A stretch of 64,000 nucleotides of DNA, taken from the NCBI GenBank assembly GCA_951804945.1, contig OX638151.1:53382001-53446000 (forward strand). The letters are read 5' to 3'. This DNA is from Podarcis cretensis. Lineage: Eukaryota. The position numbers and the translations under genes were made by a program. The notes under the pieces were generated by a model that saw only the letters and a program-made list of their open reading frames with translations, did not search any database and was not told where the DNA came from. Below are positions 3,984-63,522 of the stretch, piece after piece (position 1 is the first letter of the stretch; each line of letters starts with the position of its first letter).

Positions 3984-4404
3984 TGTTGTTGTTGTTGTTT
4001 AGTCGTTTAGTCGTGTCTGACTCTTCGTGACCCCATGGACCAGAGCACGCCAGGCACTCCTGTCTTCCACTGCCTCCCGCAGTTTGGTCAAACTCATGCT
4101 GGTAGCTTCGAGAACACTGTCCAACCATCTCGTCCTCTTCTCCTTGTGCCCTCAATCTTTCCCAACATCAGGGTCTTTTCCAGGGAGTCTTCTCTTCTCA
4201 TGAGGTGGCCAAAGTATTGGAGCCTCAGCTTCACGATCTGTCCTTCCAGTGAGCACTCAGGGCTGATTTCCTTCAGAATGGTGAGGTTTGATCTTCTTGC
4301 AGTCCATGGAACTCTCAAGAGTCTCCTCAAGCACCATAATTCCAAAGCATCAATTCTTCAGTGATCAGCCTTCTTTATGGTCCAGCTCTCACTTCCATAC
4401 ATCA
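3984..4404 (-). mobile_element. Bov-B (RTE) LINE, 5'-truncated 3' end
   Basis: Minus-strand ORF ...LRRLLRVPWTARRSN...LQYFGHLMRREDSLEKTLMLGKIEG (RTE RT C-terminus); (CAA)n tail. Confidence 0.95.
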
Positions 4405-15577: not shown

Positions 15578-15679
15578 TTTTAAAACCCCAAATATAGCTT
15601 ACAAGCAGAGTATCTCAAGGATTACCTCCTCTCATATGAGATTGTCTGCTTCCTTTAGGGTCCTCAGATGAAGCATGAC

Positions 15680-15972
15680 TAAGCTGCTTCTGGTGAATCA
15701 GAGCAGCGCACAGAAACGCTGTTTACCTTCCCACTAGAGTGGTACCTATTTATCTGCTTGCACTTTGAAGTGCTTTCGAACTGCTAGGTGGGCAGGAGCT
15801 GGGACCAAACAACAGGAGCTCACCCTGTCATGGGGATTCGAACCGCTGACCTTCTGATCAACAAGCCCTTGTTGTTGTTGTTTAGTCGTTTAGTCGTGTC
15901 CGACTCTTTGTGACCCCATGGACCAGAGCACACCAGGCATTTCTGTCTTCCACCAACAAACCCTAGGCTCTA
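15680..15972 (-). mobile_element. partial Sauria SINE interrupted by a Bov-B stub
   Basis: agagcagcgcacagaaacgctgtttaccttcc...ctttcgaactgctagg...gggattcgaaccg. Confidence 0.85.
15870..15953 (-). mobile_element. Bov-B 3' stub (84 bp)
   Basis: (TTG)n tttagtcgtttagtcgtgtccgactc...; 11-bp TSD caacaa(g/a)ccct. Confidence 0.9.
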
Positions 15973-21156: not shown

Positions 21157-22165
21157 CCGTATTTTTCGCTCTATAACACGCACCCGACCATAACACGATC
21201 AAAAACCTCCTCAGTTTTTAGAGGAGGAAAACAAGAAAAAAAAAATTCTAAACGAAACAGTGGATGTATGAGTTTTGTGGTTCATGCTGTGGCCACAGAC
21301 ATGTGATCTGACGGTGAGTTTGGAGTAGCCCAATGCAAAAATCCTGAGGATCCATGTGGATCCATGCTTTGTAACCATGTTTTTGCACCACTGCGGCCCC
21401 AGGCAACAGTGGGTGCGTGATTTTTTTGGTGCAAGATGTAGCCATGGACATGCTATGTGATCTGATGGTGAATTTGGGGTGACCCAGTGCAAAAATCCTG
21501 AGGATCCATGTGGATCTGTGCTTTGTAACCACGTTTTAAGTGGGGAGGGAAGGAAAAGCACTCAAGGGACAAGGAGCACGCGTGGGGTGTGTGGAGAAGG
21601 ATGCTGCTAATAATGCAGGCGAGGAGTTTAAGAGGAGAAGAAGCACGTGTCGGGTGGGTGGAGAAGGAGGCTGCTAATAATGAAGAAGAGGGGTATAAGG
21701 GGAGAAGGCTCCTCTCCTCTCCCACTTTGCTCCTTTAAAGCAAGCAGGCTCTGCTTTTCTCCCTCCTCCCTGCTCATCCCCGCTTAGTGAGCTGAAAAAC
21801 TTTGCTGCTATGTAGCGAGCTGAGTGGGGAGGAGAGAGGGACAGAGAGCCCGCTTGCTTTAAAGGAACCAACCGGACAGGAGCTGCTTACACTCATGTAA
21901 GTGGCTCCTCTCCTCTTCCGCTTTGCTCCTTTAAAGAAGCAGGCTCTCTGTCCCTCTCTCCTCCCCACTCAGTGGCTCTTCTCCCGCCTTGCTGTTTCAA
22001 AGCGAGCCATGGAGGAGGGAAGGAAGGGGAACCATGGATCCTCTGCCCACTACTGCAGCAGATCCCCCCCCCTCCACCTGTAGGCATTCCCTCCATAATA
22101 CGCACAGACATTTCCCCTTACTTTCTAGGAGGAAAAAAGTGAGTGTTATGGTGCAAAAAATATGG
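21157..22165. mobile_element. Tc1/mariner (Tigger/pogo-like) non-autonomous element, ~1 kb
   Basis: TIRs ccgtattttt / aaaaatatgg, TA flanks; internal ~75-bp direct repeat at 21302 and 21456. Confidence 0.85.
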
Positions 22166-23124: not shown

Positions 23125-23509
23125 ATAGACCCTCCAAGTATCCCAATTTCCAAGGACAGTCTCAGATTTACAGAAGCTGTCCCAGTTTCTAATTTGATCC
23201 TGGAATTTTCCTTTTCCTTTTCCTTAGGACGTCCCAGTTTTTACCAGAGAAATATTGGAGTGTATGGAGTTATGTGACCCTCAAACCAAGGAGATGATAC
23301 TACCTTTAGAAGACATCTGAAGGCAGCCCTGCATAGGAATGTTTATATTGATATATGTTTTATTATGTTTTTCTATATGTTAGAAGCCATTCAGAGTGGC
23401 TGGGGCAACTCAGTCAGATGGGCAGAGTAATAAATTATAAAATTGTTGTTGTTGTTGTTGAAGAAGAATAGGATGTCCCTATTTTCATCAGAGAAATGTT
23501 GGAGGGTGT
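23125..23509. mobile_element. hAT-type MITE carrying an L2-type tail
   Basis: Termini accctccaa / ttggagggt, repeated gtccc motifs; sister copy at 31990-32357. Confidence 0.7.
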
Positions 23510-23626
23510 TTAGAAAGAGAATGCCTTTGTTGTTTGGACCAGAAGTGTGCAGGATCCACTATCTCTGGCTGATTTGCAGAAATCTCTCCCAAAGAAGGCA
23601 GTGATAGTCACCACCTTAGTTGGTTT

Positions 23627-23875
23627 CAGTGCTTTTTTTCTTTAAAAAAATGTTTAGGGTTACTCTCATTTTCCTACTCATATTGAAATACTGCCCCTCA
23701 ATGAGGACAACTTAGATTCACAAAATGTTTAGGGTTTTGCGTCCCCCTCGTAGCTGTCAACTTTTCCCTTTTCTTGCGAGGAATCCTATTCGGAATAAGG
23801 GAATTTCCCTTTTAAAAAAAGGGAAACGTTGACAGCTATGGTCTCCCTGCGTCCTCCCAGAAAAAAAAAAAAAAA
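23627..23875. mobile_element. hAT MITE with nested 92-bp hAT MITE (23749-23840), inserted in CR1
   Basis: Outer TIR cagtgcttttt; inner TIRs cgtagctgtcaac / gttgacagctatg with 8-bp TSD gtc(c/t)ccct. Confidence 0.85.
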
Positions 23876-23879
23876 TTAG

Positions 23880-24100
23880 AGGACAAGGCTATCAACAGCG
23901 ACTAGCCATGATAACTATGTTCTATGTCCACTGCTGGAGGCAGTATGCCTTTGAATGCCAAATGCAGGTGGGCAGAGTGCTGTTGTGCTCATGTACTGTT
24001 TGAAGACTTCCTACAGGCATCTGGCTGGCACTCTGAGACCAGGATGCTGGACCAGATGGGCCACTGACCTGATGCAGCGGGCTCATATTATGTTCTCATT
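23880..24100 (+). mobile_element. old CR1 3' end
   Basis: ggacaaggctatcaa...ctagccatg...aggatgctggaccagatgggccac...tatgttc. Confidence 0.7.
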
Positions 24101-26519: not shown

Positions 26520-26790
26520 GGGCCATAGGAACATAAGAAGAGCCTGTGGGATCAGACCAGTACAGTATCCTGTTCTCACAGTGGGAAAACAGCAAGCAGG
26601 ATTCAAGCACAAGTGCACTTCCACCTCCTGAGTTTCCCTGCAACTGCTATTCAGAAGCAGAGCAGAGCCGTCATGGCTAGTAGCCATTGATAGCCTTCCC
26701 CTCCATGAATTTGTCCAATCCTTTTTCACAACCATCCAAATTCGTGGCCATCACAGCCTCCTTTGGGAACGAGTTCCACTATTTGGCTAT
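26520..26790 (-). mobile_element. old CR1 3' fragment
   Basis: aggaacataagaagagcctg...tagtagccattgatagcc...ctccatgaatttgtccaatcc. Confidence 0.75.
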
Positions 26791-26988
26791 GTTTTAACGC
26801 TGCAGTCCAGTGCACACTTACCTGGGAGAAAGTCTCATTGAACTAAAGGGGACTTACTTCCGAGTAGAGATGTATAGGAAGTTTGTCTCTCCATCCTGCC
26901 CTGTCCTCAAAAACAATCACCTTCTTCTCCCACTGCAAAATGCTTTGAAACTCTATCAGGTTTCAGAAGTGAGACAGTTGCCGCAGGC

Positions 26989-31989: not shown

Positions 31990-32357
31990 AGTACCAATTT
32001 CAGAGTCTAGTGTACCTATTTTTCAGGGACAGTCCCAGATTTACAGAAGCCATCCCAGTTTCTGATTTGATCCCAGAATGTCCCTCTTTCCCTTAGGACA
32101 TCTCTTTTTCATCCAAGAAATGTTGGGGGGTATGGAGTTATGCAACCCCTGAACCAAGGAGACAACCTTTAGAAGATACCTGCAGGCATCCTTGCATAGT
32201 GAGCTTTTTTAATGTTTTATTACATTTTTATATATGTTGGAAGTAGCCCAGAGTGGCTGGGGCAACCCAGTCAGATGGGTGGGGTATAAATAATAAAGGT
32301 GTTGTTGATGTTGAATAGGATGTCCCTATTTTCATCAGAGAAATGTTGATGGGTATG
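31990..32357. mobile_element. hAT-type MITE carrying an L2-type tail (sister of 23125-23509)
   Basis: Colinear with 23125-23509; ends aaatgttgatgggtatg. Confidence 0.75.
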
Positions 32358-34850: not shown

Positions 34851-34929
34851 TTGTTGTTGTTGTTTAGTCGTTTAGTCGTGTCCGACTCTTCATGACCCCA
34901 TGGACCAGAGCACACCAGGCACTTCTGTC
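34851..34929 (-). mobile_element. Bov-B 3' stub (79 bp)
   Basis: (TTG)n tttagtcgtttagtcgtgtccgactcttc... Confidence 0.9.
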
Positions 34930-35474
34930 ATAAAGCCTCCCTTTTCCTTTTATTTTGCCTTGAGGCTTTGCCATCAAATGTGATATAAGTTTGGGCCATG
35001 CACTAGTTGTTTTCAAATGAGATTACACACATACCCCTCATAACAATCCTAAAGCTATTTATTTTTCTTCTTAAGCTTGCTTCTCCTAACAGTGTTGGAA
35101 TCTGCCACTAGAAGAGTGCAGCCTCTTTAAGAGAGAGAAGTCAACACAATTTGACACCTGTCTGAGGAAGAGCAAGAGTTCCTGCACACCTGTATCGAGA
35201 AGCTGGAATCACAGCTTCAAAGCAATTCATAGCAAACTCATACTGCACTTTGATTCTACACTGTGACATTAAACTAATTACAGGAAGGAGTTGAAAGTGT
35301 CTTCAGGTGGCAAATGGTAGATGTTCATAGTGTTCCCTGGTAGAGAACTTCCTGGCCAAGCCAGGTGATCTTCTTCTGGCCACCTACCCCAAATCATGCA
35401 CAATCTGAATCATTAAAATTCTACACATGATTTATAATGATGGGGATCATATAATTTTGGTTCAGGTTCATGTA

Positions 35475-35875: not shown

Positions 35876-36574
35876 TCTCCCCTTTTGGGCAAGGTTCTTG
35901 AGCAGGTAGTCATGGACCAGATCTAGGCACTCTTGAAAGAAACTGATTTTCTAGATCCATTTCTATCAGGGTTTAGGCCCAGTTTTGGAGAAGTGCAAAT
36001 GATATGCCATTTTCAGTTGCCTTCTTTTCATGGTGCTGAACATTCCTGGAATTATAAATGGTGTTGAACAACTGGTCACGGTTGTCTTTTCCATAATTAG
36101 TTACTACTCACCTCCCAATGCAAGTCCTCCTTGAGTACTTTTGGGAAAGTGACTGCAATATGATCTCTGTGTCCAGGAATGCCAAGGATGTCACTGTGCA
36201 TGATGCCATTCTGCATGATGCCAAACATGTACCCAGAACCTGGCACCTGAAATGCATTTCTGGGAAAAATTGTGGCAGGGCAAGTGGCTTTGGGATCCTG
36301 GTCTGACCATGTAGGAGGCTGGTGGGAGAAAAAAACAAGCCACTCTATTATGAGCCACTCTGTCTCTTTATACTGTATTTTGTTTTGCCTAGGAGAGGCC
36401 CTTCTCTGTTTCCAAAAAAGTTATCACTGTGCCAAAAAAGACGACTGATAATGACAGTCGCTTTCCTTCAGCAAAGTTTACTTTTCTGCACAAACTTCCA
36501 ACTCAATGCAACTCAACAACCATATTCAGAATGGCAGTGAACTAAATCAGTAATGCAACAGCCTGGGTATGTAT

Positions 36575-39997: not shown

Positions 39998-40356
39998 AAA
40001 AGGTAAAGGTACCCCTGCCCGTACGGGCCAGTCTTGACAGACTCTGGGGTTGTGCGCCCATCTCACTTAAGAGGCCAGGGGCCAGCGCTGTCCGGAGACA
40101 CTTCCGGGTCACGTGGCCAGCGTGACATCGCTGCTCTGGCGAGCCAGAGCCGCACACGGAAACGCCGTTTACCTTCCCGCTGGTAAGCGGTCCCTATTTA
40201 TCTACTTGCACCCGGAGGTCCTTTCGAACTGCTAGGTTGGCAGGCGCTGGGACCGAGCAGCGGGAGCGCACCCCGCCGCAGGGATTCGAACCGCCGACCT
40301 TTCGATCGGCAAGTCCTAGGCGCTGAGGCTTTAACCCACAGCACCACCTGCGTCCC
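39998..40356 (-). mobile_element. Sauria SINE, young full-length copy
   Basis: CpG-rich; 15-bp perfect TSD aacaatttatcttaa at 39983-39997 and 40358-40372. Confidence 0.97.
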
Positions 40357-42581: not shown

Positions 42582-43908
42582 TATAAGAGGAGGTAGCAGA
42601 CTATTGTATTAGGCTACACTGGGTTCTGTGCTGGCTGCAGGCTGCACTTGGGATCAGCAGGAGAAAGAAGCACGAAGTAACTGGTTTAGGCACACAACAT
42701 TTTTGAAAATATATAATCCAGCTGTTACTCAGATCTATTTCTAGCCTTAAGAAAACACAAAGGTTTTTTGTTAGGTAGAGAACAGAAGTAAAAAGGAAAC
42801 ATGGTGGTGGTTTTCATAAGAGCAAGCTGGAGATAATTTTAGTTGGTGTACTAAGATTTTTTAAAAAAAGTCAATAGAAGCTACACTCGGTAGCATTACC
42901 TAGTGGTTGGAAGGAATGTGACCCTCCCAAAGTAAAGCTCCACATGCAGGTTGCAGGAAATCCTCTTCCTGTTTGAGTACAAGGCGGTTGTGATCCTCTG
43001 CCTAGTAGTGAGCAGTGGGACATTGCTCTATGGCATCTAGTCACATACCATATCTGCCTCCTTCCATACGGGCACATACAGGAGACAAATCCCAGCTGTA
43101 AGATGGGGTGTTATGTGGGCTGTTGAAAAAGGAGTTGGATGAAAAAATTAGGAAGTGAGGAGCATGCAAAAGAAAAAGGCAGGGAGCTTGGAAGAAGGTT
43201 CAGGCTTACTAAGATGGACTGCTCATGGTGTGTGAAATTGGAAGGCTTTATTATACAAAGCAATCCAATTCCTAAAAGAAATATTTTAATAATGTGGGAT
43301 TTAAAATAATGGCCTTGTTCTGCAGTTTCCTTTCTGAGGAAAGTTTCCTTTCACACAGGAATTTGAACTCTTTGCTCCTGAGAATACTCTTCACTTGCTA
43401 TTTTGCTTTAGTAAAATTCTAAAATTTGCCTGACTTTTCTGCAGCTTCCTAAACTGTTGTAATCCCACTTCTCAGTGCAGCAGTTAGAAATGAACAGCAT
43501 AATATCCAGCACTGCAAACAACTGAGTTTTATTTGCTGGCAGAGACATTACCAAAGATTTAATCTACTAAAGCCATTAAAGTATTTGCAAAACACTCGTG
43601 CAATTAGTAACCAGTGCAGCTAAAGAACAAACAGAGAAACATTGTTAGGTTGGATAACAATACAAAACTGATCTCAAAAATGCTGCAAGCCACACACGGA
43701 GATTTACTATTAAACATGTTTTTTGTGTCCTTTCCTTCCAGCTCATTGATTGTTCTCCCCTATATATTGCATGGGGGATGCATTCTGGGTCATCGTGCGT
43801 CGGCAGAACGTGCTTAAGCCTGCCCCATACCCACTCCACCCCTTTCTGTTTAAAAAGTAGATTTAAATTAGGAGCAGCAATGTGGGCCAGCCATTTTAAA
43901 TCCAGCTA

Positions 43909-44134
43909 CAGTGGTACCTCGAGTTAAGAACTTAATTCGTTCTGGAGGTCCGTTCTTATCCTGAAACTGTTCTTAACCTGAGGCACCACTTTAGCTTATG
44001 GGGCCTCCTGCTGCCGCTGCGCTGCCACTGCACGATTTCTGTTCTCATCCTGAAGCAAAGTTCTTAACCCGAGGTACTATTTCTGGGTTAGTGGAGTCTG
44101 TAACCTGAAGTGTCTGTAACCTGAGGTACCACTG
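43909..44134. mobile_element. Tc1/mariner-type MITE
   Basis: TIRs cagtggtacctc / gaggtaccactg, TA flanks; near-identical to 53904-54117. Confidence 0.92.
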
Positions 44135-44655
44135 TATATGAAAATTGTTGTAAGCCCCTCCTCATTATCCATTTCTCTGAACTGTTCCCAAGTGACACCC
44201 CTTTCTTCCAGGCCACATATTTTTCCTTTGCTTTCTTTTTTCTTTACATTATATTTGTATGCCACTTTTCTGCAAAAAAAAAAAAAAAAAAAATCATGCT
44301 CAAAACAGCTTACTAGAGAAAGACAGGGATGTGTTTCAAACAAATACTGCAAAAACAATTTCATAATAACATAGTAAAACAACAACATAGTGACCATTTT
44401 ATAATAGCATGGCAAAACAATAACAACAAACCACATTTCAATACTATGCATGTAACAAGATTACTTAAACAACATGCAGCTTCCAATGGCAAAAAATAAC
44501 AAGAGAGCTTCACAGCTTCACCTTAGACTCCTCCCATGATGTTGCTCCCTTCTCTCTCCAAGCCACACCCCTCACTGGCCCTGCTCTGTGTCTTCCTTGA
44601 GTCCTTTTGCCTTGCTGGAATAGGTACTTGGGTTTCCTTGCCTGGATCAAGAAGA

Positions 44656-50896: not shown

Positions 50897-51051
50897 TCGG
50901 TGAAATAGCTCAGTTGGTGAGAGCATGGTGCTGATAACGCCAAGGTTGCAGGTTCAATCCCCATAAGGGACAGCTGCGTATTCCTGCATTGCAGGGAGTT
51001 GGACTAGATGATCCTCAGGGTCCCTTCCAACTCTACAATTCTATTATTCTA
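50897..51051 (+). mobile_element. tRNA-Ile-derived SINE with CR1 3' tail (lacertid Squam2/POM-like)
   Basis: tagctcagttggtgagagcatggtgctgataacgccaaggttgcaggttcaatcccc fused to ttcctgcattgcaggg..ttggactagatg...ccttccaactctacaattcta. Confidence 0.85.
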
Positions 51052-51174
51052 TAGTCTGAGTTAGTTTATAGCTAAAATACCTAACAGTTAAAGTTTGGGC
51101 CTACACAAGTCTGCTCAGAAGTAAGACCCACTGAGTTCAACGGGGTAAGTAAACGTGTATAGAACTGCAGTCCA

Positions 51175-51406
51175 AGAATCATAGAATCATAGAGTTGGAA
51201 GAGACCACAAGGGCCATCGAGTCCAACCCCCTGCCAAGCAGGAAACACCATCAGAGCACTCCTGACATATGGTTGTCAAGCCTCTGCTTAAAGACCTCCA
51301 AAGAAGGAGACTCCACCACACTCCTTGGCAGCAAATTCCACTGTCGAACAGCTCTTACTGTCAGGAAGTTCTTCCTAATGTTTAGGTGGAATCTTCTTTC
51401 TTGTAG
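51175..51406 (-). mobile_element. young CR1 LINE 3' end
   Basis: (ATTCTATG)n tail; minus-strand ORF ...[40 protein letters not shown]. Confidence 0.95.
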
Positions 51407-53252: not shown

Positions 53253-53903
53253 CACGCAGTTGCCATAGCCCAGAGACAACAGGGATTTGGAATGAAACTG
53301 TTCAGAGTTACATGAGGTCCACTGCAGTTAGATAATCCCCCTTGAGCACTCCTGCTGCAGGTAGATTCCCATAGGGATTCATGTTTGTGGGATTCAATTA
53401 ACAAGGACTTCCACTAGTGCAATGGGGTTACCAAGCTTCTCCCCACACAGCCCTCCCCCCCCAAAAAAAAATGGCTCAAGGAGGGTAGGGAAAATCCCCA
53501 GAACAGTGAACATGAGGAAGAGAGAAGGGATCATAGGAGCCAACTCCTAGGGGCTAAGGTCCCTTTCCCACCCCCCATAAAATATTTGAGGGGGCTTGGG
53601 CCCTCCAAAGTTGATAAGTATTGCCATTGAAATGGTAAGTGTGTGCCACATCATGTGATCAGTTATGCAGGGCTGGACTTACCTTCCCCCGTCCCATATT
53701 TCATTCAAGTTGGCACTCCTGGAAGGAATCATTTTGTCTTGCAAGTTAAGAAGCTTTCAGTGATGGAGTAATTATTATAGGGTTAGATTGAATTCCTCCC
53801 AATGCATATTGTTGAGATGTTTTCTTCGGATTAGTGAATGAGACCGTCATTCCATCTTGGGTCAACTGGAATATATGTGACTTTGGGGAAAGTAATACCT
53901 GTA

Positions 53904-54117
53904 CAGTGGTACCTTGGGTTAAGAACTTAATTTGTTCTGTAGGTCCGTTCTTAACCTGAAACCGTTCTTAACCTGAGGCACCACTTTAGCTAATGGGGCC
54001 TCCCGCTGCCACCACGCGATTTCTATTCTCATCCTGAAGAAAGTTCTTAACCCGAGGTACTATTTCTGGGTTAGCGGAGTCTGTAACCTGAAGCGTGTGT
54101 AACCTGAGGTACCACTG
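53904..54117. mobile_element. Tc1/mariner-type MITE
   Basis: TIRs cagtggtacct / aggtaccactg, TA flanks. Confidence 0.92.
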
Positions 54118-54599
54118 TAACTATTTTACCATTTATCAGTCATTTGCAAAATGTCTTCCTCATTCAACATCAACAGCCCAATAAGGAGAATATGGAATTA
54201 TGTAGTCAATATCTCAGTTTTGAAGACTGATTTTCAGAATTAATATTTTATGTTTTAATAAAGCAGGCTCCGTCTTGAGTGTTGTTTATCATGTGCATGT
54301 GGGTGGGTGTATCAAAACAATGCATACAGTTCAACTTCTTGCTAATGAGCTGATACTGATCGGATTTTATGAGCTGGCAATGCATCAATCACTCATCATT
54401 AAACCATTCCCAAAGTGAATATTAATGCACCTTTCCTCCTATTGTAGTACAGTACAAGGCAATGCATACTTGCATCCAGATTGCACAACTGACATTAATG
54501 CTTTGCCATAAAATGAAGAATGCATTTTTTAAGTAAAAAAGGGTTATCATATTTGTTGTTCCAGAATAATATTCACAGTTTAGCCCCCCCCCCCGGGGG

Positions 54600-57624: not shown

Positions 57625-57986
57625 GGGTACAGGTGGCGCTGTGGGTTAAAGCCTCAGCGCCTAGGACTTGCTGATCGAAAGGTTGGCGGTTCGAATCCCT
57701 GCGGCAGGGTGCGCTCCCGCTGCTCGGTCCCAGCGCCTGCCAACCTAGCAGTTCGAAAGCACCTCCAGGTGCAAGTAGATAAATAGGGACCGCTTACCAG
57801 CGGGAAGGTAAACGGCGTTTCCGTGTGCGGCTCTGGCTCGCCAGAGCAGCGATGTCACGCTGGCCACGTGACCCGGAAGTGTCTCCGGACAGCGCTGGCC
57901 CCTGGCCTCTTAAGTGAGATGGGCGCACAACCCCAGAGTCTGTCAAGACTGGCCCGTATGGGCAGGGGTACCTTTACCTTTACCTT
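57625..57986 (+). mobile_element. Sauria SINE, young full-length copy
   Basis: 12-bp TSD tatgctgaccgc; near-identical to 39998-40356. Confidence 0.97.
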
Positions 57987-58824
57987 TATGCTGACCGCCT
58001 TTCTAAATGAGATTCTTGCATTCAGTCTGAAATTATAGTTTGAAGTAATAATTAATAGGTTAAATCTATGACTTTCCCCAGACAGGCATTCACTTATTTT
58101 GCCATGTTCACTGTGGCCTTAAAGGACAAGCTCAGAAAGGGGGATGAGTAACCCTAAGTAACTAAAAGAAATATTCCTGGGGGATGAGAGTTCAACTTTG
58201 GGGACAAAAGAACAAGGTGCTTATAGATATTCATACAACCCATATTCAAATTTTCCCCCAAATTATCTGAAGCTGCCTTTATCTCAAGTGTTTGATGGTC
58301 CTGATAACTTAATGCAAATCCCCTCACGGTTTCTAAAGAGATGAAAACCCTCTTCATGTAATGTGCCCAATAAGAGAAAGCAGGTGAGGTTGGCACAATT
58401 CAAAAGCACTGTCAGGAATGCCAGTATGGCTCCACTGGTGGATTTGTACCACAATGACCTTGCCCCCCCCCCTCTCCATGGCTATATGCAGCAGCAGCAG
58501 CCAGAAGGTCAGGTGAAGAGTGCAGCCCCATGCTGCCGTCCAACTGTCCTTGTGTGTGCAGGCCCAACCTGCTCCATCCCTGACTTTCTCAAGTCGCGTG
58601 GGAAGTCTAAAGGTGGCTTTGAAATGCAGAGAAGTCTCCTTGCAATCAGGAATCCTGAGGGTGCAGGCTTCCCACTTGTCAGAAGACTTCTAAGTGTCTT
58701 CAGACAAGTGCACTTAAAAAAAGATCTCTCTCAATTCAGATCTTCTCTCTCAAAACAGGAAAGTTGGGGGTAGAGCAGACAGAAACATGGGGAGCAAGGG
58801 AGAGTGCCCTCCCCCATTTCTGAC

Positions 58825-58945
58825 TTGTTGTTGTTTAGTCGTTTAGTTGTGTCCGACTCTTTGTGACCCCATGGACCAGAGCACGCCAGGCACGCCTGTC
58901 TTCCACTGCCTCCCGCAGTTTGGTCAGACTCATGTTGGTAGCTTC
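58825..58945 (-). mobile_element. Bov-B 3' stub (121 bp)
   Basis: matches the 3' ends at 3984 and 59391. Confidence 0.92.
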
Positions 58946-59390
58946 ACTGTTGATAGCCTTGTCCACCGTGACTTTGTTTTCTTTTAAAACCAACTAGTGC
59001 TTTTCTCGGGGGGGACGCAGGGAGACCATAGCTGTCAATGTTTCTCTTTTTTTAAAAAGAGAAATTCCCTTATTCCGAATAGGATTCCTCGCAAGAAAAG
59101 GGAAAAGTTGACAGCTACGAGGGGGACGCATACCCCTAAACATTTTGTGAATCTAAGTTGTCCTCATTGAGGGGCAGTATTTCAATATGAGTAGGAAAAT
59201 GAGAGTACCCCTAAACATTTTTTTAAAGAAAAAAAGGACTGAAACAAAAAAGGTGGTGGCTATCACTGCCTTCTTTGGGAGAGATTTCTGCAAACCAGCC
59301 AGAGATATTCCAGTGGATCCTGCACACTTCTGGTCCAAACAACAAAGGCATCCTCTTTCTACACACCCTCCAACATTTCTCTGATGAAAA
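58946..59390 (-). repeat. inverted duplicate of 23482-23900
   Basis: Same order of hAT end, spacer, CR1 piece, hAT MITE with nested MITE, CR1 piece, with shared junctions. Confidence 0.95.
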
Positions 59391-59857
59391 TTGTTGTTGT
59401 TGTTTAGTTGTTTAGTCGTGTCCAACTCTTCGTGACCCCATGGACCAGAGCACGCCAGGCACTCCTGTCTTCCACTGCCTCCCGCAGTTTCGTCAGACTC
59501 ATGTTTGTAGCTTCGAGAACACTGTCCAACCATCTCGTCCTCTGTTGTCCCCTTCTCCTTGTGCCCTCCATCTTTTCCAACATCAGGGTCTTTTCCAGGG
59601 AGTCTTCTCTTCTCATGAGGTGGCCAAAGTATTGGAGCCTCAGCTTCACGATCTGTCCTTCCAGTGAGCACTCAGGGCTGATTTCCTTAAGAATGGATAG
59701 GTTTGATCTTCTTGCAGTCCATGGGACTCTCAAGAGTCTCCTCCAGCACCATAATTCAAAAGCATCGATTCTTCAGTGATCAGCCTTCTTTATGCTCCAG
59801 CTCTCACTTCCATACATCACTACTGGAAAAACCATAGCTTTAAATATACGGACCTTT
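59391..59857 (-). mobile_element. Bov-B (RTE) LINE, 5'-truncated 3' end
   Basis: ORF RVPWTARRSNLSILKEISPECSLEGQIVKLRLQYFGHLMRR...WRALVHGVTKSWTRLN; (CAA)n tail. Confidence 0.96.
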
Positions 59858-61721
59858 TTTCCGACTACTACTTTCTAATTCCCTCTTTAGACACAAGACC
59901 CGAACAAGTGTTACAGATTTCAGCCAAACACTGTTAAGTAGTACAACTGAGAGGCCACACCCAGTTATTTACCAAACTTTGGAAGGGCTGCAGAAGAACA
60001 TCACTTGGATCCAGGATCTGAGAAGCGGGGTTCACATACCCCAACCTGCTAACCTTGGGACTGCCTGCAGTTTTTAAAAATCTATTTGCAATTCAGACCA
60101 AGCCTGAGAGCAGTTCTTAGACTGTTTGCATAATAATGGGCACAGTTGAATTTCAATGACTGCTTGAAAGGTCATCTCTTCCCCTGCTCTGCCCCACGCA
60201 TTTCACTTAATGGCCTGTTTTACTTTAACTCGTCCATTTTACTTTAACCCTTATATATTGTTTCAAGCGTTTGAAGCTATTACTCTACTGAAACTCTACA
60301 TGAACTGAAGAAACATAACTGTCTCTCCATGGGTGCTAAACTTTTCTGTTTTGCAAGAAAAACAACATATTTGGACCGCTTCTCTCAGTAATGATTACAA
60401 TTCTGGATGCCTCTCCTGAGGACATAGCCCACAGCAACCAGTAGCCATTTCTGCAATCATATCAGCCATACATATCCCACAAAAAGCCCTCTGGCAGGAC
60501 TAGTACTCTCCCCTTCTGTGGATTCGAGGAACTGGTATTCAAAAGCATTGCTGCCTATGTTTCAGTGTAATTGGCTTATGAACTTATAAAGGTTGTGGAC
60601 ACCACCTGCTGCTGCAGTCCTGCTCTCTCCTTCACTTATAGATCCTACGTAGTTGTAGAAGTAAGAACTGTACCACAGAGGTTTCTCTAAGCCATCCTGT
60701 AGACAGGAGAAAATGGCGCACAGAAAATACAGCATTGTGAAAATCTAAGCAGACAGCTGCTAGGCAAGAGCCAGCCCCCATTCTTGTGAATCCCTTGTAA
60801 AGAATTTGGATTGATGTGTATATTGCCCAACTGCTTCACGACACTTTGGGGGCCAGTTGTCTTCTAAAGCTGCCATCAGTGCTGACAACGATGAGGCAAT
60901 GCTTTTTCGATCTTGCTTCCCAAAGTCTCACAATCCTGCTTTCCCCCTTGATTTATGTAGAGTTGAAGCTGCTGCTATTAGCGGATCGATTCCTATACCT
61001 GGTTCTAATCCACCGTGCCCAGAAAGCTGGAATTTTCAGCTGCTATACTTGTTTGTTATTAGACTCGCTCCAGAACTTTTAAAGGAAGGCATCTCTTGCA
61101 GCATGTTGCATTACGAAAGGGGAAGCAACAGTCATGTGGATGCAAAGGTACTTACCAGGACATCAAAGGAGAATGCATATTCTTCCTCTCCCCTCCCCCA
61201 ATCTGCACAGATCACATTTATGGGGAAATAGGACTGTGCCTGCAGGCTACACACCTGACATACCTGCTTGCCCATGTCCCTCAGCACACACACACACCCC
61301 TATTCCATGCTAATGGAAAAGGGTAGGATCACATGGAGGAATGGATGGGTGTGTAAGAACTGGGTGGATATCAGAGAAAAAGCAAAAAAAGTTCTTCTCT
61401 GGCTCAGATTCACAAGCTGCAGAAGTTTTGGAGTTTTAACACTCATATTGTATTTGAGGCAAGCATTGGAGCTACCCAAAACTATATTTCCAAGCCTGAA
61501 AATATGTGTGTGTGGTGGGGGATTCTGAGCATGCATTGCCCAGCCAATTACATTAAATGGCAAGCACTGGCAAATGCCAGAGATACTGAGGGTAGGGTGG
61601 CAAAATGGCACTGAGAAGCAGCAGCTGGAGAACAAAAACAAGGAAAGAAGAGTACTGGAACAGTGGAAATGTTTGGCAGGGTAGAATCTTTCTTTGAAGG
61701 GGGGAATTAGTTAAGCTGCAT

Positions 61722-63322: not shown

Positions 63323-63522
63323 CCTGACAGTAAGAGCTGTTCGACAGTGGAATTTGCTGCCAAGGAGTGTGGTGGAGTCTCCTTCTTTGGAGGTCTTTAA
63401 GCAGAGGCTTGACAACCATATGTCAGGAGTGCTCTGATGGTGTTTCCTGCTTGGCAGGGGGTTGGACTCGATGGCCCGATGGCCCTTGTGGTCTCTTCCA
63501 ACTCTATGATTCTATGATTCTA
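63323..63522 (+). mobile_element. young CR1 LINE 3' end
   Basis: Reverse complement of 51175-51365 apart from an 8-bp duplication cgatggcc. Confidence 0.95.

Follow-up and report, generated by a model that had tools for sequence, protein, structure and literature searches.

An inverted copy of a locus 35 kb distant within a Bov-B-type insertion of Podarcis cretensis: probable capture in a single retrotransposition event

The stretch of Podarcis cretensis DNA analysed here (64,000 nucleotides, hereafter the window) contains at 58817-59866 a composite unit, in which a Bov-B-type stub, an inverted copy of DNA lying 35 kb away and a longer Bov-B-type piece are all enclosed within a single target-site duplication (TSD). 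The unit is probably the product of one retrotransposition event, in which the cDNA strayed to a nearby locus and restarted on a Bov-B tail, a rare mishap of a type familiar from other elements of this sort. Re-alignment within the window agreed to within 1-2 nt with the order, coordinates and sizes of the pieces given in an initial annotation of the same DNA. The unit comprises the following features:

58817-58825, minus strand: 3' copy of the TSD, 9 nt, with its final T common to the tail
58825-58945, minus strand: Bov-B-type 3' stub, 121 nt, with a tail of three CAA units
58944-58946, unstranded: overlap of Bov-B and source at the first switch, 3 nt, with one CpG change
58946-59391, minus strand: inverted copy of 23481-23899/23901, 446 nt
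59391-59857, minus strand: Bov-B-type 3' end (the long piece), 467 nt, with a tail of four CAA units
59858-59866, minus strand: 5' copy of the TSD, starting with A after T on the strand of the element

The long piece retains an open frame of 122 aa (59407-59772) that corresponds to the end of the RT ORF. This frame matches at 94% a 998-aa Podarcis muralis protein with the domains PF00078, PF14529 and PF03372, and 15 wall-lizard matches at 88-94% were found among the 120 listed. None of the matching proteins bears the name Bov-B, which rests on the tail and on PMC13295347. The tails of three and four CAA units lie within the (CAA)2-6 range of Bov-B tails given in Table 4 of PMC13295347, and the other three copies in the window have four units. 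These three further Bov-B-type 3' ends are located at 3986-4404, 15869-15953 and 34851-34929, all five copies being on the minus strand; the copy at 15869 sits inside a SINE and has an 11-nt TSD, and those at 3986 and 34851 have no clear TSD. A possible distant TSD for the stub at 34851 (12 of 14 letters, at 35446) was rejected, as a search over 2.5 kb could give such a match by chance. For the long piece, the 5' end was set at 59857, the loose ends in four of four runs continuing the family sequence beyond it.

Comparison of the Bov-B pieces revealed no private change common to the stub and the long piece in the 82 nt where four to five window copies align, which is weak evidence, as each copy has only 3-4 private changes. 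Further in, the two pieces have two changes in common against one outgroup copy, one of them a common N/S variant in wall-lizard proteins. The long piece differs from another copy by 4.1% (17/416), and the stub from the long piece at 7 of 121 positions. The divergences between source and copy and among the Bov-B pieces all fall at 3.7-5.8%, so that their ages agree.

The middle piece was traced to a locus with the following features:

23481-23901, plus strand: source (donor) segment, intact and uninterrupted at either end, starting at a T/A step
23137-23507, unstranded: MITE at the source, unbroken across 23481, with a paralogue at 32011-32354
23627-23862, unstranded: outer MITE with an 8-nt TSD
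23749-23840, unstranded: inner MITE within the outer MITE, with its own 8-nt TSD
23590-24100, plus strand: CR1-like 3' fragment, unbroken across 23901, with a paralogue near 26520-26800 on the minus strand
23443-23460, plus strand: (TTG)6 tract, complementary to the CAA tail, its last letter 21 nt ahead of the capture start

In a self-comparison of the window, 23481-23866 aligns with 59391-59001 at 94%, and the alignment extends to 23901/58944; the copy at 58944/58946-59391 is the reverse complement of 23901/23899-23481. It holds the last 27 nt of a MITE, a unique spacer, and a CR1-like piece split by a MITE that itself contains another. The names hAT MITE and CR1 follow the initial annotation and are provisional. 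For the spacer (23508-23600), the copy is the only second match within the window, and an exact 24-nt spacer pattern found no match in metagenome contigs. As the source sequence continues uninterrupted past the two breakpoints into paralogous repeats, the locus at 23.5 kb is the donor; the alignment and the intact donor uphold the earlier claim that a unique mosaic had been duplicated from a locus 35 kb away.

Source and copy have diverged by 3.7% (14 substitutions over 377 aligned columns of the core, together with indels). The copy has kept 5 nt and ~22 nt that are absent from the source, among them the outer MITE's right end and right TSD; the left TSD of this MITE is intact in the source and damaged in the copy. 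These reciprocal losses indicate that both loci have aged independently, which rules out mis-assembly of one locus. An assembly artefact was rejected on the divergence, the reciprocal losses and the recurrence of the outer junctions in three other organisms.

The window holds further repeats. Two SINE copies (39999-40350 and 57630-57981), presumably of the Sauria type, are 98% identical and each have their own TSD; older SINE copies lie at 15672, 36574 and 54620. A cluster of short direct and inverted self-matches (72-84%) spans 21256-21972. The inverted pair 51175-51365 and 63323-63521, 96% identical, resembles the 3' end of a further young LINE, its 51175 copy adjoining or lying within a palindromic element (50981-51244). 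Two TA-flanked MITE copies with terminal inverted repeats (43892-44136 and 53902-54119) are 89% alike.

The unit bears an outer repeat of 8 nt, or 9 nt with the T shared with the tail (58817-58825 / 59858-59866), with one mismatch, at a CpG. The possible 8-bp TSD with one CpG transition noted earlier is thus present, and is 9 nt long when the shared T is counted. A match of 7 of 8 letters at two random sites has a chance of 0.0006 with exact ends, and of 0.007 with 3 nt of slack at each end. A flanking repeat was sought for the stub, the long piece, the copy, and the copy plus long piece, each alone, and none was found; the stub plus copy has only a 5-nt repeat, inside the tails. The length of 9 nt and the T/A start agree with the Bov-B/RTE signature (7-15 nt, A after T). 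Squamate Bov-B TSDs are described in PMC13295347 as starting with A after T, with three T located some 10 nt upstream of the cut, and the TSD range of RTE elements is quoted as 7-15 nt in PMC6007223. Of the upstream T stretch, the target has only TT at -11/-12 and the source none. Among the rows listed, the right TSD copy of one organism has the other CpG change, at 59863.

At the internal junctions, the stub and the copy overlap by 3 nt (TCG, with the G decayed at a CpG) and the copy and the long piece by 1 nt, in keeping with the 1-3 nt of microhomology first reported. Predicted folding at the first switch point and at the Bov-B end was nothing unusual (z of -1.2 and -0.7, respectively). A loose end at 58940 (run X7) has no match within the window.

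Relatives were compared through the contigs of four of the 23 listed runs, one each of organisms A, B, D and E; run X1 is possibly the window's own sample, and so not independent. Both outer junctions are present in the contigs of all four organisms. The left-flank contigs of the four runs enter the stub to 58849, 58852, 58835 and 58848, and other contigs start inside the long piece at 59828, 59815, 59814 and 59828 and continue into the right flank. These overlaps are short, at most 44 letters with five of the eight below a 31-letter bar, and the left contig of organism D reaches only 11 letters into the stub. With flank divergences from the window of 0%, about 1%, 2-3% and 2.5-4.5%, the junctions in all four organisms suggest that the event roughly coincided with their splits or preceded them. 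No skip across the unit, as an empty site would give, occurs among the 15 of 292 joints listed. Among the contigs listed, none bridges the junction of copy and long piece, and the stub/copy junction is crossed by one contig, with fewer than 31 letters per side and possibly from the window's own sample. At 60210, the window and organism A are 10 letters shorter than organisms B, D and E, which is a lineage-specific deletion.

The spacer has a contig depth of 35.5, 15, 45.3 and 33 in the four runs versus 13.2, 22.3, 14.2 and 16 for the right flank, that is, 0.7-3.2 times the flank depth, a rough measure and not a copy number; in repeats the contig depth is 1e5-4e6. The unique spacer is low-copy in the contigs of the relatives, and many dispersed copies of the unit are unlikely. 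Of the three findings that the initial annotation had named as speaking against its reading, two, many dispersed units and relatives devoid of a Bov-B piece, were not encountered, the spacer not being multicopy by contig depth and both ends occurring in four of four organisms. Organism A has both spacer forms, at 59307. The contig of organism D, without the 1-nt source/copy gap near 59249, looks copy-type, and that of organism E, with an added C near 59249, looks source-type. For organism B the listed rows do not cover the middle piece, where a contig hole proves nothing.

Several features favour a single event. One TSD surrounds the whole unit and none surrounds its parts; both Bov-B pieces start at the 3' tail of the RNA, the point from which reverse transcription proceeds, and in the same orientation, which fits template switching as treated in PMC11702581. 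The differing tails (three versus four units), the missing shared private changes and the agreeing ages point the same way, as does a capture start at a T/A step, 21 nt past a TTG tract. TA makes up 5.8% of the steps. The (TTG)6 tract is the only tract of at least (TTG)4 on the plus strand of the window besides the Bov-B tails, and only 0.04-0.13% of positions are so near such a tract; against this, a degenerate TTG tract belongs to that MITE family. An insertion would land within 35 kb of its source by chance with a probability of ~6e-5, which argues that the capture was local.

In such an event, the endonuclease would have nicked the target at the T/A step, and reverse transcription would have copied the CAA tail and 121 nt. 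The cDNA, growing from left to right on the plus strand, may then have left the Bov-B RNA, its end pairing at 23901 with 3 nt of the source's plus strand, and synthesis would have proceeded over 421 nt of source to 23481. It would have restarted, via the 1-nt overlap, at the 3' tail of a Bov-B RNA (the same or a second molecule), of which 467 nt were copied, and second-strand joining would have yielded the 9-nt TSD. Within this single event, the template of the middle piece was probably DNA, reached by a strand invasion as proposed for L1 templated insertions; an RNA template seems unlikely, and strand transfer after Bov-B had also nicked the source is more doubtful still. The target flank bears on this point, as it resembles the end of the copy:

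58807-58825, plus strand: target flank like the end of the copy (59366-59391), 13 of 15 letters

The resemblance has a P of 0.003-0.004 for 30-nt windows and of 0.02-0.03 for 20-nt windows, reaches 15/300 when anchored at the junction, and ends about 10 nt before it. It speaks against a pure RNA jump and for DNA having re-annealed at the target, with or without reverse transcriptase, be it in the course of the insertion or by later repair; like the TTG tract, it was picked out post hoc among a dozen or so features.

The initial annotation had proposed a single target-primed event with two template jumps, by way of local nascent RNA or DNA. One event with local capture is the part that is best supported; the nascent-RNA template is not, as no host gene was found in the window. 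A Pfam scan of 299 of the 302 stop-to-stop frames of at least 62 aa, leaving out three that overlap the unit, detected no host gene and gave four matches, two of them below the cut-off and two from one sulfotransferase fragment. A crude scan for splice sites gave 31 candidates, none of them convincing. The fragment, at 36103-36337 on the plus strand, is a broken cytosolic sulfotransferase (SULT1-like) that covers residues of about 107-137 and 158-183 and leaves no space for introns. By the exon boundaries of such genes it spans three exons, and is presumably a piece of a processed pseudogene; a homologue search with this piece returned nothing. Rfam gave one weak tRNA-family match (50906-50964, plus strand), which is probably the head of a SINE.

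The main alternative, absent from the initial annotation and rather unlikely, is that an ordinary 467-nt Bov-B inserted first. Later, at a break or fork stall 121 nt inside the element, the locus 35 kb away would have been invaded and 446 nt copied, followed by re-annealing at the look-alike flank and renewed copying of the element from its tail, by SDSA or fork switching. The product and its single TSD would be the same, overlaps of 1-3 nt are typical of such repair, and the end of the copy does resemble the flank beside the tail. Repair captures in transposons are also common in vertebrates, with 824 human cases of up to 619 bp in PMC2671141, including 58 same-chromosome captures with a donor beyond 5 kb; gap filling explains most single-copy Pack-TIRs according to PMC8277862. 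However, the return would have to coincide with the tail, the resemblance stops about 10 nt before the junction, and the tail of the long piece has one unit more than the stub tail from which it would have been copied. The stub and the long piece have no private change in common, the duplicated acceptor would exceed 120 nt versus 4-21 nt in the table of PMC2671141 (whose pipeline allowed only 30 nt either way), and the T/A step and TTG tract at the source would be left to chance. The divergences of the stub, the long piece and the copy gave no sign of a Bov-B older than the insert. From the sequence alone, a single event and a later repair would not be separable.

Two separate insertions at one spot, the stub with the captured DNA followed by the long piece or the reverse, are very unlikely. 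Bov-B is dense here, with five copies in 64 kb and one inside a SINE (15869), and a clear TSD is missing in two of the three other window copies. Nevertheless, re-targeting would have to be exact to the base and leave no second TSD, none having been found for any part, and both ends occur in four of four organisms. Still less probable is a 3' transduction by read-through from a master elsewhere that already held the Bov-B, the copy and the stub. It would account for the tail at both pieces and for the single TSD, but the spacer depth is near the flank depth, organism A has two spacer forms, the closeness of 35 kb would arise by chance at about 6e-5, and the capture problem would only be moved elsewhere. 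Ordinary 3' transduction from the source itself fails to explain the unit, as the initial annotation had argued, because no Bov-B adjoins the source, whose MITE is unbroken across 23481. A prior ligation of three RNAs (RtcB-type, as proposed for U6/L1 chimeras) followed by one pass of reverse transcription could yield chimeras of the same orientation (PMC13174262, PMC11702581), but seems scarcely credible, as it leaves the closeness to the source and the 3-nt overlap unexplained, and the window gave no evidence of a source transcript and no host gene.

If the unit arose in a single event, the CAA tail might have paired at the (TTG)6 tract, which is speculation. It is doubtful that Bov-B complexes repeatedly duplicate DNA tens of kilobases away, with pairing of the CAA tail to (TTG)n at neighbouring loci halting the straying cDNA and restarting it on the tail, so that Bov-B-copy-Bov-B units would mark a recurrent, tail-guided route to local duplication in squamates. 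The present unit is one old non-coding locus with no sign of function.

Published precedents exist for tripartite LINE chimeras, for templated insertions and for local duplications mediated by repair. Double template switches within one TSD are described in PMC2104539 for the WEIRD-MgSINE-MGL chimeras of Magnaporthe and the B2-U6-L1 chimeras of mouse. Like the unit, such chimeras have three pieces in one TSD, in the same orientation and with the 3' end of the LINE at the 3' side, and the unit likewise shows one TSD around all pieces and none around the parts. They differ in adding abundant RNAs, whereas the middle piece of the unit is single-copy DNA from 35 kb away and its outer pieces come from the same LINE. 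The pieces of tripartite chimeras are all expected to be sense RNA copies; the Bov-B pieces of the unit are co-oriented, but no gene or transcript was found for the middle piece. Counting against a template switch, PMC8857657 argues that cells may not need template jumping and attributes L1 chimeras to RNA ligation, the standing alternative.

In tumours and cell models, L1 is known to copy local DNA on insertion, or to join two transcripts in one orientation; the templated insertions are mostly <250 bp and lie no more than 15 bp from the site (bioRxiv 10.1101/2024.08.27.596794, PMC11702581). They resemble the unit in duplicating local DNA, with a proposed cDNA invasion akin to SDSA. They are somatic and belong to the L1 clade, whereas the unit is germline and of the RTE clade, measures 446 nt at a distance of 35 kb, and restarts at the tail; it thus lies outside the size and distance typical of L1 (<250 bp, ~15 bp). 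Repair duplications and single-copy Pack-TIRs are, like the unit, short copies of a nearby donor within a transposon with short overlaps; their donors lie mostly within 5 kb and the host element continues, whereas the unit restarts at the tail. LINE 5' ends with extra nucleotides taken from the flank are also known, as is template jumping at the 5' junction (PMC4245944, PMC2912911).

The unit shares with squamate Bov-B, as described in PMC13295347 and PMC6007223, the CAA tail, the TSD starting with A after T and the TSD length. The word chimeric is absent from the main text of PMC13295347, and no Bov-B or RTE example of such a unit was found in the literature searched, whose coverage excludes most subscription papers. 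The initial annotation had regarded template jumping as established for R2 and L1 and knew of no such form for Bov-B. The latter is borne out in that no Bov-B case was found, but the class, including double jumps within one TSD, is in print for other LINEs (PMC2104539). If the unit arose in a single event, it would represent a germline, RTE-clade case of what has been reported chiefly for L1, in tumours and cell lines, with a range far longer than usual. Bov-B has ~52,000 matches in the wall-lizard genome (PMC13295347), an abundance that would allow tail-X-tail units to be counted.
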